Part shown: positions 47,723-55,135 of the stretch, piece after piece | How positions within the stretch are numbered: the stretch's first letter is position 1 | How the letters are laid out: every line of letters starts with the position of its first letter | Position numbers and translations under genes: made by a program | Source: Flavobacteriales bacterium | Lineage (GTDB): Bacteria; Bacteroidota; Bacteroidia; Flavobacteriales_D; CAJJDF01 | DNA length: 64,000 nt | NCBI GenBank assembly: GCA_965655625.1 | Contig: CBFHHA010000006.1 | Location: 11,745 to 75,744 of the forward strand | Direction: 5' to 3' | Notes under the pieces: generated by a model | Seen by the model: only the letters and a program-made list of their open reading frames with translations | Told to the model about the DNA's origin: nothing | Database searches by the model: none

Positions 47723-49216
47723 ATGCCATTCGACACTATTTTTTCTTGGATAATTAAGAAAAGAATAGAACAAATAGAGCAGTTCACTAACCATCCTATT
47801 GAGGCTCAACAAACAGTATTGCACGATCTTTTGGGCAAAGCGAAACACACTGAAATAGGAATTGAACATGGGTTTCCCGATATTGGAACCTACTATGATT
47901 TTAAGAAAAATGTACCACTTCGCACCTACGAAGATTTCACCCCTTACATCAATAAATCAATTGCAGGAGAAGAAAATATCTTGTGGCCTGGAAAAACACA
48001 CTGGTTTTCGAAATCATCGGGCACCACAGATGCCAAAAGTAAATTCATTCCTGTAACTCAAGAAGCAATTCAGGATTGCCATTACAAAGGTGGCAAAGAT
48101 CTGCTGAGCATCTATTACCACAACAATCCTTCGGCAAAACTATTTTCTGGAAAACACCTTATTTTAGGTGGAAACACTTCACTCAATAAATTAAATCAAG
48201 ACAGTTATTTTGGTGATTTATCTGCTATTATAGTAAAAAACCTACCCTTTTGGGCCGAAATAAGAAGAACACCTAGTAAAGAGATTACCTTGATGGAAAA
48301 TTGGGAAGAGAAGATTGATAAAATGGCCAAAGCTTCGCTTAAAGAAGACGTAAAGATAATTGCTGGCGTGCCTTCCTGGATGTTAGTGTTATTGAACAAA
48401 ATCAGCGAAGTTTCGCAAGGCAAAAGGCTCACCGAAATATGGCCGAATCTAGAATTGTACATGCACGGAGGTGTAAACTTTGAGCCCTACCGCAATCAGT
48501 TCGAATCCATCCTTCATTCCCAAAAACTCAATTATTACCAAACCTACAACGCATCCGAAGGTTTTTTCTCGCTTCAGAATAAAAACAAAGCAGAAGATAT
48601 GCTGCTCATGTTAGACTACGGTATTTTTTACGAATTTATTCCGATGGATAAATTCGATGGCACAGAGTCAGAAACTATTGAATTGCAGGAAGTAGAATTG
48701 AATAAAAATTACGCACTCGTTATCAGTACCAATGGAGGACTGTGGAGGTATATCGTGGGAGATACCGTAAAATTTACTTCGCTTTCACCTTTCAAAATAC
48801 AAGTAACAGGCCGAACCAAGCACTTTATTAATGCCTTTGGCGAAGAACTAATTATCGAAAATACAGATAGAGCGATTGCCAGTGCTTGCAAAGAAACCAA
48901 CAGTGGATTCAAAGAATATACGGTTGCACCAAACTATCTAGAAGGCAAGGAAAAAGGAGCTCACGAATGGGTGATCGAATTCACTTCACCGCCAAAAAAT
49001 CTGGAGGAATTTGCCGAAATTTTAGACAAGAAGTTAATGGAGCTAAATTCGGATTATGAAGCCAAAAGAAACATGATTTTGAAAGCGCCAATTGTTCATT
49101 TGGCAGCACCCAATACTTTTCAAAAATGGCTCAAAGAAAAAGGAAAACTGGGTGGACAAAATAAAATACCTCGACTAAAGAATGACCGAGTCTTTATGGA
49201 AGAAATACTCTCCTAA
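47723..49216 (+). CDS. GH3 auxin-responsive-promoter family protein (acyl-adenylate/amido synthetase fold)
   Basis: KSSGTT..KFIP, YNASEGFF, GLWRYIVGD, GQNKIPRL. Confidence 0.92.
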   Translation: MPFDTIFSWIIKKRIEQIEQFTNHPIEAQQTVLHDLLGKAKHTEIGIEHGFPDIGTYYDFKKNVPLRTYEDFTPYINKSIAGEENILWPGKTHWFSKSSGTTDAKSKFIPVTQEAIQDCHYKGGKDLLSIYYHNNPSAKLFSGKHLILGGNTSLNKLNQDSYFGDLSAIIVKNLPFWAEIRRTPSKEITLMENWEEKIDKMAKASLKEDVKIIAGVPSWMLVLLNKISEVSQGKRLTEIWPNLELYMHGGVNFEPYRNQFESILHSQKLNYYQTYNASEGFFSLQNKNKAEDMLLMLDYGIFYEFIPMDKFDGTESETIELQEVELNKNYALVISTNGGLWRYIVGDTVKFTSLSPFKIQVTGRTKHFINAFGEELIIENTDRAIASACKETNSGFKEYTVAPNYLEGKEKGAHEWVIEFTSPPKNLEEFAEILDKKLMELNSDYEAKRNMILKAPIVHLAAPNTFQKWLKEKGKLGGQNKIPRLKNDRVFMEEILS

Positions 49217-49421
49217 GAATACGATCACATTTCATTGGTTTTTACCATCAATTAAGACGAGTAGGTAACAATCCTATTCCCAAAAAATAACGGGAAAAAT
49301 TGTTCAATTTGGTTAGTCAATAGTTAAAACGTGCATCTAAAGCAAAATAAACCACCCTAACTCAATAGCATTTCCCATTTTTTGTATGTTTTGTTTTAAG
49401 TCCTTTATTAAAACAAACAAG

Positions 49422-50384
49422 ATGAAAAATTTAACGTATTTATTTCTCCCCCTTTTTATCGCCCTACAGGTAAGCGCCCAACAAAATGACATGTGGATCA
49501 AGACTCCATTTCTTGGAGGAAATTCAACTTTCCCTCCTACCTACCAAAGAGCTTCTTTTGAACTCGATTTTTCAAACTATGCCAACAACACGTATTTCAA
49601 CCATAGCCGTCCGTTACTCAGAATTTCTGAAATTAAAGAACTAGGAAGCGGTGTTTTATCTCCTCCCAAAAGAGACGTGTTGCTTTTCATGACTTCAACA
49701 GGTCGTTTTGGATTATCAACTCCCTCACCAAATTCCCTGTTTCATTTGCACAAAACTGGAAGTAAAAAAGGGTTGTTTACGCTTTCTTTCACCTCCGCAA
49801 CTGGAGCTCAAATAAACTCGAGCGAACTGGGAATCAACTCAACCAACCAAAGTTATTGGCTCGCAGGAGCTACTGCAATTGGCGGTAACAAGTCCTTGTT
49901 CAGTCCCGGATTTACTACGGCTAGTAAAATTGAATTTGACAACGAAGGCATTTCTTTCTTTTCCTGCTCAAAACAAGGAACTTCCCCCATCATTTCTTCT
50001 ACAAACTGGAAAAAAGGAATGACCATTGACAAACTGGGCAGAGTGAGAATTGGAACACAATCCTTACTAGGAGGCTCGCACAAGGACTTCAAATTATCAG
50101 TAGATGGGAAAATAGTAGCAAAAAAAATCATTGTGACAAACGGACCTGAATGGGCCGACTATGTTTTTGCTCCCGATTACTTTTTAATGCCTCTTTCTGA
50201 TTTAAAATTATTCATTGATAAAAATCATCACCTACCAAATGTCCCCAGCGCTACTGAAATTACTGAAAAAGGCGTGGATGTATTTGAAATGAATAAAATT
50301 TTGTTAGAAAAAATAGAAGAAATGACATTGCATCTAATTCAAATGGAAGAAAGAATGAAAGTCTTAGAAAATAGAGAAGATTGA
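49422..50384 (+). CDS. Exported fibre-like protein with C-terminal WADYVF/coiled-coil domain
   Basis: Signal peptide (VSA-Q); GRFGLSTPSP and GRVRIGT repeats; KLSVDGKIVAK..WADYVF..HLPNVPSA..LLEKIEEMTL; start reassigned to ATG 49422. Confidence 0.75.
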   Translation: MKNLTYLFLPLFIALQVSAQQNDMWIKTPFLGGNSTFPPTYQRASFELDFSNYANNTYFNHSRPLLRISEIKELGSGVLSPPKRDVLLFMTSTGRFGLSTPSPNSLFHLHKTGSKKGLFTLSFTSATGAQINSSELGINSTNQSYWLAGATAIGGNKSLFSPGFTTASKIEFDNEGISFFSCSKQGTSPIISSTNWKKGMTIDKLGRVRIGTQSLLGGSHKDFKLSVDGKIVAKKIIVTNGPEWADYVFAPDYFLMPLSDLKLFIDKNHHLPNVPSATEITEKGVDVFEMNKILLEKIEEMTLHLIQMEERMKVLENRED

Positions 50385-50418
50385 AAACCATTTTTCATTA
50401 TTTGCCAAAAAATAAGGT

Positions 50419-51213
50419 ATGAAAAACTTACTTACCACCTGCCTAGCTATCCTTCTGTTGTTTGCTTGCAAAAAAGAACCCAAAGAAGAACCAAACCCGT
50501 GTTGCGGAGAAACTCCCGTAAAAGCCGATTTTGGCATGATGAATGGAACTTCTTTAACCCTGCGTTTTGTCGGATTTTATCCCGATGTAGCCTTTGCAAG
50601 AGAATTCATTACGTTCAAGGCAATTCCCGAAGACCCCGAAGCTACCTACACCTGGTACCTGGGAAGCGAAGTGATAACAGGCTCAACCTTTCAACGAGAT
50701 TTTAGTCCCACCAAAACAACGGGCGAAAACAACATTCCTATTACTATGGTGATAAGAAAAACACCCAACAAAGAGTGCTTTCCCAATGACGAGGGTTATG
50801 ATTCCATTACCAAAACCATCACCCTAGTAGATGATTATTGTGACTATTTAACCAATGGAGATTTTAAAGTGCTTTTTACTGGTGCAGCCGATAGTTCAAT
50901 CGTTCGTGTGAGGAATTGGGATGTAATGTACCCGGAATATTTTACAATTAACTGCGTCCAAAGACGACCAACACCTGTTGGATTTGATGGGGCTAATAAA
51001 ACTGACACTATTTGGAGTAGTAATGGTTCAGATGGTGCTGAACAGTTCTATTCTCGAATGATTTTCCCTCAGCGCTCTTCTACAATTGATGCCATTTTCA
51101 ATGGAAGTTTTACCGTAAATCCAAATAATTATGATGTTTCTGCTCACTACCAAATTTTTAGAAGGGATGGAACTCATGATGCTTATAAATTCAAAGGAAG
51201 AAAAATAAATTAA
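50419..51213 (+). CDS. Lipoprotein with PKD-like domain
   Basis: Lipobox LFAC followed by KKEPKEE; VKADF...ITFKA....TYTWYLG. Confidence 0.78.
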   Translation: MKNLLTTCLAILLLFACKKEPKEEPNPCCGETPVKADFGMMNGTSLTLRFVGFYPDVAFAREFITFKAIPEDPEATYTWYLGSEVITGSTFQRDFSPTKTTGENNIPITMVIRKTPNKECFPNDEGYDSITKTITLVDDYCDYLTNGDFKVLFTGAADSSIVRVRNWDVMYPEYFTINCVQRRPTPVGFDGANKTDTIWSSNGSDGAEQFYSRMIFPQRSSTIDAIFNGSFTVNPNNYDVSAHYQIFRRDGTHDAYKFKGRKIN

Positions 51214-51220
51214 TAAGACT

Positions 51221-53896
51221 ATGAGAAAATTTATATTCACACTAATTACATTCTTGATATCCAATTTGGCAATCTCTCAAAACTGCCAAGATTGTTTTCA
51301 AGATAAAAATATCAGTACAAATCCTGAAAATCCTGAAAACTGTGAAATGGATTTATATGCCAATGGGAAAAATAATCAATTTTTAAATTCATTTGATTGG
51401 GGCAGTAATAACGGCAGTATATTTCTATCCTATGATTTAAACCCTAATTCTCCTTGGCAAGTTCCATACTCTACTGCTCCCTCAGGATACTTTATGCAAT
51501 CTCCTTTCAGGCAAGGTTTTTTAGACCTAAATAATAATTCGCCAATATCGATACCTCTTAAAGATTACGATTTTCAATGGGAAGATGGATGGGAATTAAT
51601 GTTTATGAATACAGGATATTGGCCTGATGGTAGCTCTTATGAGGTAGCTGATCCTGCCAATATGTTTGCGAATCCTGAACAAATACCTCATAGACGAATT
51701 CCCTATGTAATTCTCTACAACAGATATACAGGTAAAATTCGATTTCTACTTGGAGTCTATGCTAATTTCGAAGATTTTACTGATATATCATTAAATGTGG
51801 GTTACTTAAGTGGAACATTGGGTAGCGGGATTTTTCGCCATGGCAATACCTTAGATAGAGCACTTGACCAAGAAACGACAACTCCCTCCTACAACACACA
51901 CTTTACAGCACCAGGCAATATTGATTTATGGTTAATGGCTGATGCGCAACTTGCCTATGATCCATGCGTATGTGAAGTCCAAACAGCTTTCGATATCCAA
52001 CTCCATGGTATTACAGAATCTAAATTAGATTTGTTAGCAAGAGGTATTTCTATTAATCGCCCTTTGCAAGTTGGCGGGCAACCCACTTATACCGATTATT
52101 TAAACATCAGTGCCGATAATCTAAAAACCAATGCCAATGGTGCTTTAATTTATAAAACGTTGGATGGAATGATAGATGAATACAACAAGAATCTGGACAT
52201 TTATCACAACCAACTGAATGACTACAATACATTGGGGGCTCAACTTCATCGAAATCTTTACGACTTAACCAAGCAAGGGCTGAATACTGGTTTTCAATCT
52301 GTTATCCCTGCCTCGGTGTATCATCACCTAGGAGGAAATGTAGCCGGTATTGTCGGTTCCTTCAAGGGTGGGAATGGAACGAAAGCAGATTCAGCCAAAT
52401 ACTCCAAACAATTAAGCAAACAACGAAAGGCAGCCTTAGGTAATTTATCTGACCAATTATTCGTTTCCTTAATTCAAAAACCAACCAAACCCACTAAACC
52501 CACAATGCCAGTAGCCTCTTTTAGCGAAATGCGGATTTCAGGATTATTGACGAAGTCAAATTCGATTACTCTGGGCAACTATCCTACTCCTGGTAATTTA
52601 AAAGCCAATAACGGCCCTTTTGATCCAACTCGCTATCCCATTTACAACAAACCAGTGGGGTTGTTTGCTTTGTTGGAAACTCCTAGTTTGGTGGGTTGGC
52701 AGTCTTTGGAGGACAAAAATTATTGGGAGAGAAATCATTACCATCCATTTTTTAAGTCACACCTATGGTATAAAAAAGGCTTGAAAACAAGTTTTAAACT
52801 AAAATCATCACTCCAGTATAAATTCAATGACAATGTCGACATCGACAAAGAGCAAACTGAAATTTATGGACAGTATAGAATCGAGATTTCCAAAAATTTC
52901 AATCATCCATCAAGTTCCAAAAACCTACAATTATTGGAAGATAACAACCTCATTATTTTGCACGAATTTGATGATAAAATTATTCTTCAGAGCGATTGGT
53001 ATCCCATAGAAATTTTAGGTGAGATTGTGGCTTCAACGAGCATGATTTTCGATCACGGTTGGATTAATAAAAACAAAAAGAATTATGAGCCAATCCTAGA
53101 AAAAGTACAACTCACTTTAATGGCAGATATTTATTTCGAATCTCTCGGTTCAGACGGAAGAGAAAAAAACACGACCCAAGTGTTTACTTATGAATTGTAC
53201 AACAGGGAAAAGGAAGTCGATTTAATTGCCGAAAAAGGTAGTTGGGAATCAGATAAAAGAGAGGTTCAAAAATTCACACCAGGCACCATCGAAATAAAAG
53301 ACGAAGTAATTAAACCATCTTCTGACTTTGTATGGGATGTAGTGGGCAATGAAATTCACATAAAAGCTGAGTATGTAAACCTACAAGGCAAAGTAGGAGT
53401 GCAACCTGGGTACAAGGCAATCATTGAGGCATTTTGGGAAATAGAGGTGGATCCTACCTTAGAGTTGGACAGGATTCAGCTCGAGGTAAAAAAAGATTTT
53501 TATGGATTCCCCGAACCAAGTGAGGTTACCCTCGATGAGCTAAAAGAATTCTGTGGCAATGACCAGAAATACAAAGCCAAGATAGTAAAAGAAGGCATCA
53601 TAAATCCGAATACGGTGGAGGAAAAGAACGATACTGTGGAAGAAGACTTGAAAGAAATGAAGTTTATCTTGTTTCCCAATCCAACTTCGGAATTTATCAC
53701 GATTGACATACAAGGTGTTTCGGAGGGCGAAAATGGGACAGTCCGAATTTTTGATTTAAGTGGAAAAGAAGTTTTGTCTAAAAACATACATTCCATTCGT
53801 TTTTCGGTTGATGTAACCACCCTAAGTAAAGGAGTCTATTTTATAGAGATAGGTACTAAGGAACAAAAAAAGGTAAAACGATTTATTAAAATATAG
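51221..53896 (+). CDS. T9SS type A CTD protein of unknown function
   Basis: Signal peptide; C-terminal LFPNPTS...IFDLSGK...LSKGVYFI...KRFIKI; no recognisable catalytic domain. Confidence 0.85.
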   Translation: MRKFIFTLITFLISNLAISQNCQDCFQDKNISTNPENPENCEMDLYANGKNNQFLNSFDWGSNNGSIFLSYDLNPNSPWQVPYSTAPSGYFMQSPFRQGFLDLNNNSPISIPLKDYDFQWEDGWELMFMNTGYWPDGSSYEVADPANMFANPEQIPHRRIPYVILYNRYTGKIRFLLGVYANFEDFTDISLNVGYLSGTLGSGIFRHGNTLDRALDQETTTPSYNTHFTAPGNIDLWLMADAQLAYDPCVCEVQTAFDIQLHGITESKLDLLARGISINRPLQVGGQPTYTDYLNISADNLKTNANGALIYKTLDGMIDEYNKNLDIYHNQLNDYNTLGAQLHRNLYDLTKQGLNTGFQSVIPASVYHHLGGNVAGIVGSFKGGNGTKADSAKYSKQLSKQRKAALGNLSDQLFVSLIQKPTKPTKPTMPVASFSEMRISGLLTKSNSITLGNYPTPGNLKANNGPFDPTRYPIYNKPVGLFALLETPSLVGWQSLEDKNYWERNHYHPFFKSHLWYKKGLKTSFKLKSSLQYKFNDNVDIDKEQTEIYGQYRIEISKNFNHPSSSKNLQLLEDNNLIILHEFDDKIILQSDWYPIEILGEIVASTSMIFDHGWINKNKKNYEPILEKVQLTLMADIYFESLGSDGREKNTTQVFTYELYNREKEVDLIAEKGSWESDKREVQKFTPGTIEIKDEVIKPSSDFVWDVVGNEIHIKAEYVNLQGKVGVQPGYKAIIEAFWEIEVDPTLELDRIQLEVKKDFYGFPEPSEVTLDELKEFCGNDQKYKAKIVKEGIINPNTVEEKNDTVEEDLKEMKFILFPNPTSEFITIDIQGVSEGENGTVRIFDLSGKEVLSKNIHSIRFSVDVTTLSKGVYFIEIGTKEQKKVKRFIKI

Positions 53897-53954: not shown

Positions 53955-53962
53955 TATCTTTG
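53955..53962 (+). promoter_or_regulatory. -7 element (TATCTTTG) of dxr-rseP
   Basis: Exact TAnnTTTG 18 nt upstream of ATG 53981. Confidence 0.6.
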
Positions 53963-53980
53963 ACACTCATCAAGCAAATT

Positions 53981-55135
53981 ATGAGTAAAAAAGGTATCGC
54001 AATATTAGGTTCTACGGGTTCAATAGGCACTCAAGCCCTAGAGGTAATTGAACAGTTTCCCGAAAAATTTGAATTGGTGGTCCTTACGGCCAACCTAAAT
54101 GCCGATTTGTTAATCGAACAGGCACTTAAATTCAAGCCAAATACGGTCGTAATTGTAGATGAAACACAGTACCAGAAAGTGAAAGATGTTCTGTGGGAAC
54201 ACGACATAAAAGTATATGCTGGCGAAGAGTCATTGAATCAAGTGGTAGAAATGAACGAGGTAGAAACTGTACTTACGGCAACAGTTGGATATTCTGGATT
54301 ACTGCCTACCATTCATGCGATTAACGCAGGAAAAAATATTGCTTTAGCCAATAAAGAAACACTCGTAGTAGCAGGAGACATCATCACCAAACTTGCCCAA
54401 CAAAAAGGAGTGAACATTTACCCAGTCGATTCGGAACATTCAGCAATTTTTCAGTGCTTGGCAGGAAACTTTGAGAATAAAATCGAAAAACTTATTCTGA
54501 CTGCATCTGGAGGACCATTTAGAGGAAAAACATACGAGGAACTAAAATCAGTGACAAGAGAACAGGCACTGAAACATCCCAACTGGGAAATGGGCGCAAA
54601 AATCACGATTGATTCGGCTTCATTGATGAATAAAGGCTTGGAGGTAATTGAAGCCAAGTGGCTGTTTGGCATTCCTGCCGAAAAAATTGAGGTGGTCGTG
54701 CATCCACAATCCATCATTCACTCCGCGGTGCAATTTGAAGACAGCAGTATTTTAGCTCAAATGGGAATTCCAAGCATGAAAGTGCCTATTCAATACGCTT
54801 TGACTTATCCAGAGAGGCCAAAATCAAATTTTGAGCGGTTTAGTTTTTTCGATTATCCAAATCTTACTTTTGAAAAACCAGACATGGAAACTTTTAAAAA
54901 CCTGAAACTAGCGTTTGATGTAATTGACAAAGGTGGAAACTCTGCTTGTGTTCTTAACGCTGCTAATGAAATTACGAACAAGGCGTTTTTAGATGGCAGA
55001 ATCTCGTTTTTGGACATTGGGGATATTAATGAAAAAACGATAGAAAGCACTACTTTCATTTCCCAACCAACACTAGAAGATTACATTGCAACCAATACTG
55101 AGGCAAGAAGAATTGCCGAAGAATTTTGCCATTAA
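53981..55135 (+). CDS. dxr: 1-deoxy-D-xylulose 5-phosphate reductoisomerase
   Basis: LGSTGSIG, LANKETLV, PVDSEH, LTASGGPF, HPNWEMGAKITIDSA; start reassigned to ATG 53981. Confidence 0.97.
   Translation: MSKKGIAILGSTGSIGTQALEVIEQFPEKFELVVLTANLNADLLIEQALKFKPNTVVIVDETQYQKVKDVLWEHDIKVYAGEESLNQVVEMNEVETVLTATVGYSGLLPTIHAINAGKNIALANKETLVVAGDIITKLAQQKGVNIYPVDSEHSAIFQCLAGNFENKIEKLILTASGGPFRGKTYEELKSVTREQALKHPNWEMGAKITIDSASLMNKGLEVIEAKWLFGIPAEKIEVVVHPQSIIHSAVQFEDSSILAQMGIPSMKVPIQYALTYPERPKSNFERFSFFDYPNLTFEKPDMETFKNLKLAFDVIDKGGNSACVLNAANEITNKAFLDGRISFLDIGDINEKTIESTTFISQPTLEDYIATNTEARRIAEEFCH

Follow-up and report, generated by a model that had tools for sequence, protein, structure and literature searches.

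An accessory three-gene cassette of Flavobacteriales with possible features of a toxin-immunity system in mirror order

We analysed a stretch of 64,000 nucleotides, hereafter the window, from a Flavobacteriales bacterium (GenBank assembly GCA_965655625.1, contig CBFHHA010000006.1, positions 11,745 to 75,744). Our subject is a cassette of three genes, here named A, B, and C, that encode a fibre-like protein, a lipoprotein, and a type IX secretion system (T9SS) cargo. The cassette is a real, conserved, and widespread three-gene system. Gene order is fixed, insertion is patchy, a barrel domain of B is exchanged jointly with the N-terminal domain of C, and B occurs in arrays. We put at about one in two the probability that the cassette is a polymorphic toxin system in mirror order. 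On this interpretation C would be the toxin, B a surface immunity protein encoded upstream, and A an aiming fibre. Coordinates are given in Table 1.

Gene C is patchily distributed. Including the genome studied here, matches occur in 39 order-level genomes out of 401, and in 16 out of 401 at the phylum level. One search returned 140 full-length relatives, and a profile of the C core reached 2,631 clusters at 50% identity. The source labels of relatives were Bacteroidia, Flavobacteriales, Crocinitomicaceae, Cytophagales, and Ignavibacteria. An Atlas search gave only unnamed Bacteroidota clusters. The sequencing runs that contain the stretch were marine or aquatic metagenomes and one organism run, with no RNA run among those listed. 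The 49 loci that we retrieved take in each of the 38 further order-level genomes that matched C. Note that the order-level genomes are kin and not independent. We counted as C starts those C open reading frames whose match begins within the first 60 profile positions (n = 53). B is the next gene upstream of 52 such starts; the one remaining start falls at a contig end. At most five genes upstream, A is found in 42 of the 53 cases, one of these being a C-A hybrid gene. Eight of the 11 starts without A reach a contig end. Among 16 distant loci, B is upstream in six, A adjoins without B in four, and three are uninformative. At three, an unrelated lipoprotein of 372-383 residues occupies the place of B, followed at one locus by an N-terminal fragment of C.

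The initial annotation had described three co-oriented genes, forming an accessory module in a core neighbourhood. Open reading frame coordinates confirm the arrangement, with all genes on the forward strand and gaps of 34 (A-B) and 7 (B-C) nucleotides. Synteny around dxr bears out the rest. In 11 of 12 congeners, the GH3-family gene and dxr adjoin, separated by 37-52 nucleotides, and the block is absent; only G001 has a cassette at the site. That cassette contains three copies of B. In G012, a decayed cassette lies elsewhere; there A is split and is followed by B, a fragment of C, another copy of B, and a C without its middle part. In the genome that contains the window (99.5% complete), A, B, and C are each single-copy. 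We conclude that the cassette is an insertion into the GH3-dxr neighbourhood. Core-genome status is ruled out by the congener comparison. Prophage origin is ruled out by housekeeping flanks and by the three window proteins having no PHROG match. The GC content of the cassette is that of neighbouring genes and we detected no compositional anomaly relative to the flanks; this check rules out recent transfer from a compositionally distant donor. None of the three outcomes that the annotation had named as telling against it arose. Homologues of A, B, and C were found together in fixed order, the block is not core synteny, and the cargo has neither a hydrolase family match nor a conserved set of catalytic-looking residues.

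Comparison of the window with G001 divides the cassette into conserved parts and diverged blocks. Identity is 99% for the GH3-family gene and dxr, 98% for A, 94-100% for the PKD-like part of B, and 99% for residues 471-790 of C. It is 40-45% for B residues 169-264, 59% for C residues 22-280, and 53% for C residues 437-470. The proportion of synonymous differences (pS) is 0.6-0.7 in the diverged blocks, each of the two in C giving 0.71, compared with 0.03 in the GH3-family gene and dxr. Hence, the diverged blocks are old alleles acquired by recombination. Fast point mutation is ruled out as the source, since synonymous sites in the same blocks are near saturation. Between the two variable patches, the C insert has 93% identity and a pS of 0.22.

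Metagenomes contain the same pattern. We compared four marine runs. Single contigs from two of these, belonging to separate studies, extend across the locus, and in both the same three blocks are replaced (X12 and X15). The remaining two runs contain a joint between the end of one B and the start of another, that is, tandem B. A diverged block of unchanged length, at 52531-52631, is present in X2, X12, and X15. With the first B of G012, the more distant genome, the window's B barrel shares 71% identity, compared with 41-47% for the three copies in G001. Similarly, residues 22-74 of C are 85% identical to G012, but 74% identical to the nearer G001. Alleles of the B barrel and the C head thus travel as pairs in this comparison. 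Copies of B are also in excess; the 49 loci hold 70 B genes of at least 230 residues and 36 full-length C genes. At L017, L018, L067, L068, L073, L074, L078, and L094, B is followed by N-terminal fragments of C.

Several loci carry variants of the cassette. In loci of two families, a fourth gene follows C and encodes a lipoprotein of about 150 residues without a Pfam match; this gene is absent from the window. At L131 (5716-9270), which has no B gene, the C homologue directly follows A and is longer by about 400 residues at its N-terminus. On the reverse strand of L078 (9979-11064), a hybrid gene between two copies of B fuses the N-terminal domain of C (profile positions 2-270) to the conserved C-terminal module of A. 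This hybrid could be the relic of a deletion, or else a fibre-tipped head. At the end of L082, a second B is followed by more C fragments. Our literature search, outside which lay most subscription journals, found no description of an A-B-C cassette; the supplements of PMC10769870, PMC7073777, and PMC11169675 may list such loci. Within that literature the cassette is undescribed, and it is actively diversifying.

None of A, B, or the 780-residue core of C matched a family in Pfam, NCBIfam, PHROGs, or PADLOC, the last giving no family for any of the three proteins. These are three large families without a named function. The initial annotation had recognised no enzyme domain, which these searches uphold, and had assigned each protein an export signal of a different class. 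For C, the T9SS type A C-terminal sorting domain (CTD) is firmly supported (PF18962, E 1.4e-14; TIGR04183, E 7.8e-15; residues 817-890; 54.6 bits against cut-offs of 27 and 23). For A and C, the signal peptidase I (SpI) signals are readings of the sequence, as is the lipobox of B.

Protein A has a predicted SpI signal, a variable body with MAT-type capping-loop motifs, and a conserved C-terminal module (about residues 223-318) ending in a predicted coiled coil. An alternative in-frame ATG, at 49386, would add 12 residues; the signal peptide matches the 49422 start. The family profile matches the Bdellovibrio MAT fibre Bd2133 (8ond, E 1.1e-7) and also 8ojn (E 7.2e-5), with three MAT-type chain sequences beyond Bd2133 in all. 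A relaxed capping-loop-like motif occurs in 15 of 28 A proteins, and two or three of the 28 weakly match PHROG tail-fibre families. Identity as a fibre bearing the S74 chaperone was rejected on motif, profile, and Pfam. Briefly, the SDxxxK motif was present in one of 28 members, the profile probability was 4.7% against a set of six S74 sequences, and the 28 members had no Pfam match. Capping-loop motifs and beta-helix repeats place A with the MAT-like, non-S74 fibres; A is also a predicted trimer. MAT fibres (PMC10769870) resemble A in the profile match, a capping-loop-like motif, and a signal peptide. They differ in size, at about 1,000 residues, whereas A has about 300, with its own conserved end module and no S74.

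Of 121 phylum genomes, 16 have A-family genes, and as many as 14 matches fall in one genome. We took 20 loci from among the top matches, at which the next cargo was an RHS-core protein in four, an M4 or M12 peptidase in three, a C homologue in one, and something else or nothing in the rest. Two of the four RHS-core proteins, which like the peptidases are encoded just downstream of A-family genes, carry Ntox23 or Cytotoxic tips. L142, L148, and L156 combine one or more A-family fibre genes with OmpH/Skp, a small protein (two of three), and a protein of 1,750-1,800 residues. This large protein has no recognised toxin tip, a PKD end in two of three cases, and weak YD matches in two of three. At L149 (5081-5530) and L159 (13877-14329), a protein of 150 residues, with little beyond a T9SS CTD, is encoded with two fibre genes on one side and an SpvB-RHS toxin gene on the other. 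It may act as carrier for a toxin that lacks a CTD.

For B, the lipobox cysteine, Cys17, is invariant in all 76 aligned proteins. At least two acidic residues are found at +2 to +8 in 62 of the 76, by a looser criterion than the published K-(D/E)2-type motif. The acidic stretch resembles the surface lipoprotein export signal of Bacteroidota, as defined in PMC5080379. The AlphaFold2 model (predicted local distance difference test score, pLDDT, 86.7) consists of a PKD-like domain and a lipocalin-like beta-barrel. The closest folds are 1l0q for the first (Z 8.3, root-mean-square deviation 2.8, 81 residues aligned) and 3h3i for the second (Z 8.2, 3.2, 106), and the search tool's own note places such Z scores as middling. 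A sequence search of the PDB with B found nothing under E 0.1.

Protein C begins with a putative Sec signal, read by eye and consistent with a model helix at residues 2-19. Its AlphaFold2 model (pLDDT 79.9) comprises two beta domains, the first of them N-terminal, then a small beta module (686-756) and the CTD. Two long strands (256-272 and 438-455) flank helices at 306-416, which are partly below a pLDDT of 50. Because of this layout, and the co-exchange of strand 438-455 with the N-domain, we infer that the strand folds back onto that domain. Distant homologues have a shorter insert, ending in a hydrophobic helix and then glycines. Across 286 distinct inserts, the best 17-residue hydropathy has a median of 1.31, compared with 0.89 for N-domains, and 20% of inserts reach at least 1.6 against 0% of N-domains. 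Conserved positions in C are mostly G, P, W, Y, and C, and there is no conserved histidine or metal motif. Of the polar positions, R174 and D247 are invariant, and E125, N167, D216, and D241 are well kept. In sequence searches of the PDB, full-length C recovered only matches to the CTD, and the core recovered coiled-coil noise.

Part of the C-terminal half of C resembles a 3-coathanger stack. We built a profile from seven NF045639-like segments of fibre-adjacent cargo. Compared with C residues 680-775, it gave a profile-profile probability of 87% (E 4e-6, 61 columns); four control segments of C gave at most 0.2%. The profile hit nine of 17 fibre-adjacent cargoes, of which six are seeds, and none of 55 other T9SS proteins of this genome. 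NF045639 itself scored above cut-off in five of 19 fibre-neighbour proteins and in one of 10 C homologues, a distant C. The similarity of A tracks the C-terminal parts of C (partial correlations 0.27 and 0.26) more than its head (0.10), a weak signal that runs against linkage. We regard docking of C on A, suggested by these profile comparisons, as a lead and not a result. Note that C shares the CTD with T9SS type A cargo and resembles NF045639 proteins in the module, and that these name export and accessory modules only.

The initial annotation could match the cassette to no named system, and it fits no CDCL, TANFOR, or RHS system. In layout, the closest precedent is a cholesterol-dependent cytolysin-like (CDCL) toxin with BcdI (PMC11169675). 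BcdI is a surface lipoprotein of 30.4 kDa, encoded directly upstream of CDCL-S, that blocks pore formation. Variants of the element diverge from within this upstream gene through the toxin gene. Both systems are accessory Bacteroidota loci, in which the gene for a surface lipoprotein of about 30 kDa precedes that for a secreted protein. However, CDCLs are two-component lipoproteins of the signal peptidase II class with the cholesterol-dependent cytolysin (CDC) beta-barrel fold, whereas C has a T9SS CTD and is accompanied by a fibre gene (PMC11169675). CDC membership of C was rejected; C had no Pfam match to Thiol_cytolysin (PF01289), G000 had none, and comparison with the CDC profile gave a probability of 0.08%. 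In 17 CDC loci with 1.5 kb flanks, the best match of the B profile had E 0.005, BcdI not being identified among these loci.

Polymorphic toxins are a second point of comparison. Contact-dependent inhibition (CDI) and rearrangement hotspot (RHS) systems keep arrays of extra immunity genes and orphan fragments. The cassette likewise has a recombination-swapped block in a conserved frame, a linked partner (52/53), and extra copies of it (70 B versus 36 C). Such a frame, a swappable block, a linked putative immunity gene, and extra immunity-like copies are common to CDI, RHS, and TANFOR toxins, the last being toxins of Bacteroidetes that share a T9SS context with the cassette (PMC7073777). The cassette differs in that its variable part is N-terminal and its partner gene upstream. 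Furthermore, the swapped domains are alleles of one family, unlike the unrelated tips of polymorphic toxins.

On the toxin-immunity interpretation, C would be exported by the T9SS through its CTD. It would dock on the predicted trimer of A by its conserved C-terminal half, with the coathanger-like module, and A would aim it at target cells, namely related Bacteroidota. The N-terminal beta domain would assemble at the target and free the helical insert into the membrane, forming an alpha-helical pore. This pore step is the weakest link and, taken alone, is doubtful. On the producer cell, the surface-exposed B barrel would bind its cognate C N-domain and block pore formation, and extra copies of B would protect against the alleles of neighbours. 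Mirror order would follow from export; since the sorting signal has to sit at the C-terminus, the toxin would vary at its N-terminus, with its cognate immunity gene upstream. Hence, one recombination tract could swap both. Replacement of B by an unrelated lipoprotein, in three of 16 distant loci, fits an immunity role. Together with allele swapping and B arrays, this pattern favours toxin and immunity over anchor and adhesin.

A number of findings weigh against this interpretation. The cassette has no C-terminal variable tip or downstream immunity gene, and C has no TANFOR, RHS, or known tip domain in Pfam or NCBIfam. Our searches gave no sequence or fold link to a known toxin; with the full-length model of C as query, fold searches, in which MACPF, aerolysin, and other pore-former folds were of interest, gave lists filled by the CTD. 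They barely probed the core, and do not show its fold to be new. Classical polymorphic toxins vary the toxic domain itself, whereas the cassette keeps its putative pore insert conserved. The window's own insert is at the weak end for hydropathy (0.84), and 80% of inserts fall below 1.6. Four of the 16 distant loci have no lipoprotein upstream, and A-family genes also flank non-toxin cargo or none. Co-exchange of the B barrel and C N-domain needs no binding, since they are DNA neighbours. Their similarities give a partial correlation of 0.31 in 35 pairs, but 0.18 in 29 triads, below the C-coathanger value of 0.23; note that the pairs are related, not independent, and that results were unstable between runs. 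C fragments, of about 75-290 residues, fit decay after duplication as well as stored cassettes. Finally, only profile-profile comparison yields the coathanger match of C; hmmsearch with that profile found one of 106 close homologues, and missed C of the window.

A surface adhesion or receptor-binding complex is, in our judgement, a possible but rather unlikely explanation. Here, B would anchor the cognate C in the membrane, or be its chaperone, and A would be an adhesive fibre. The swapped block would change the ligand, or evade phages or predators, with spare B genes and C fragments as silent donor cassettes. PKD and lipocalin-like folds occur commonly among surface binding proteins of Bacteroidota, the likeness of A is to adhesive MAT fibres, no toxin fold emerged from searches with C, and co-exchange in fixed order fits any cognate pair. 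However, B exceeds C by about 2:1, and often has no fragment of C after it; in seven of 16 distant loci, B is gone or an unrelated lipoprotein has taken its place. A hydrophobic helical insert is needless in an adhesin, and A-family genes flank bona fide RHS toxins.

C could also be a fibre-delivered toxin against eukaryotes, such as grazing protists or algae, with B a co-secreted activator or targeting partner and variation tracking the target. SpvB-RHS proteins and secreted peptidases are encoded next to A-family genes, the insert is membrane-like in many homologues, and marine and plankton metagenomes are the best sources of cassette DNA. Nevertheless, we consider an anti-eukaryote role improbable; it leaves unexplained why a producer should carry divergent B paralogues in arrays. 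A third alternative makes C an enzyme that is secreted, or a protein that binds nutrients, with an unrecognised fold; B would be its inhibitor or a surface receptor for the product. A-family genes adjoin M4 and M12 peptidases, an alpha/beta hydrolase, and a GH16-like protein. The invariant R174 and D247, and the well-kept E125, N167, D216, and D241, would agree. Yet the majority of conserved positions are of the G, P, W, Y, and C kind, without a conserved histidine or metal motif, and the polar residues lie in the very domain that is swapped. We consider this improbable too.

Table 1. Features of the cassette and its flanks (window coordinates), and of related loci (locus coordinates).
Feature	Position	Strand	Remarks
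Gene A, fibre-like protein	49422..50384	+	320 aa
Gene B, lipoprotein, candidate surface immunity protein	50419..51213	+	264 aa; Cys17 then K-E-E export-signal-like stretch
B PKD-like domain, residues 31-139	50509..50835	+	1l0q
B lipocalin-like beta-barrel, residues 141-264	50839..51210	+	3h3i
B swapped block, residues 169-264	about 50920-51189	+	replaced in X12, X15 contigs
Gene C, T9SS cargo of unnamed family, candidate toxin	51221..53896	+	891 aa
C variable N-terminal beta domain, residues 22-280	51284..52060	+	diverged in X12, X15
C helical insert flanked by two long strands, residues 281-436	52061..52528	+	candidate membrane-inserting part
C second variable patch, residues 437-470	52529..52630	+	strand after insert
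C 3-coathanger-stack-like module, residues ~684-760	53270..53500	+	candidate fibre-docking tag
C T9SS type A C-terminal sorting domain, residues 817-889	53669..53887	+	
Left flank, GH3-family (PF03321) gene	47723..49216	+	core neighbourhood
Right flank, TATCTTTG motif and dxr	53955..55135	+	motif 53955-53962; dxr 53981-55135
Unrelated lipoprotein replacing B	L132:8782-9906, L133:10229-11347, L136:4779-5930		372-383 aa; in L136 then C N-terminal fragment
Lipoprotein of ~150 aa after C	L020:7834-8307, L080:5194-5646, L081:10097-10567, others		

The flanking genes deserve brief comment. The upstream gene belongs to PF03321, the GH3 acyl-amido synthetase type, which rules out a glycoside hydrolase. 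It scores 415 bits to the OlsH model (cut-off 620), and may be a lipid acyl-amido synthetase related to the OlsH lyso-ornithine lipid synthetase. All 12 congeners have it as a neighbour of dxr. Downstream, TATCTTTG precedes dxr, and a similar motif precedes dxr in cassette-free congeners. A promoter of its own for dxr at this motif, as annotated initially, is plausible on these grounds. The count of TANNTTTG in the window is at chance level (87, with 83 +/- 9 expected), as were matches in a sigma-70 and terminator scan. All four metagenome runs have one extra A at position 50406, in the A-B spacer, which points to a possible homopolymer variant or error in the window. In another family, L070 has a frameshifted cassette, identified by N-terminal sequence only, between dxr and a GH3-like gene; the GH3/dxr neighbourhood may have been targeted twice.

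A broader generalisation can be offered, though we think it unlikely to hold in full. Short, separately encoded trimeric fibres may be a general aiming device for T9SS weapons, with a coathanger-stack tag docking RHS toxins, proteases, and C. C would then be a new class of helical-insert pore-former, of more than 2,600 clusters, whose N-domain would be swapped together with the upstream surface immunity lipoprotein, as a single cassette. Strain-level competition of environmental Bacteroidota is poorly explained at present. The association of fibre genes with coathanger-tagged cargo suggests how soluble T9SS toxins could reach targets. The natural allele series, with one frame and several B barrels and C heads in a single species, makes the specificity of cognate pairs directly testable. 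If correct, the toxin-immunity interpretation would provide a function for three large unnamed families, and would point to T9SS-based, fibre-aimed antagonism in environmental Bacteroidota.

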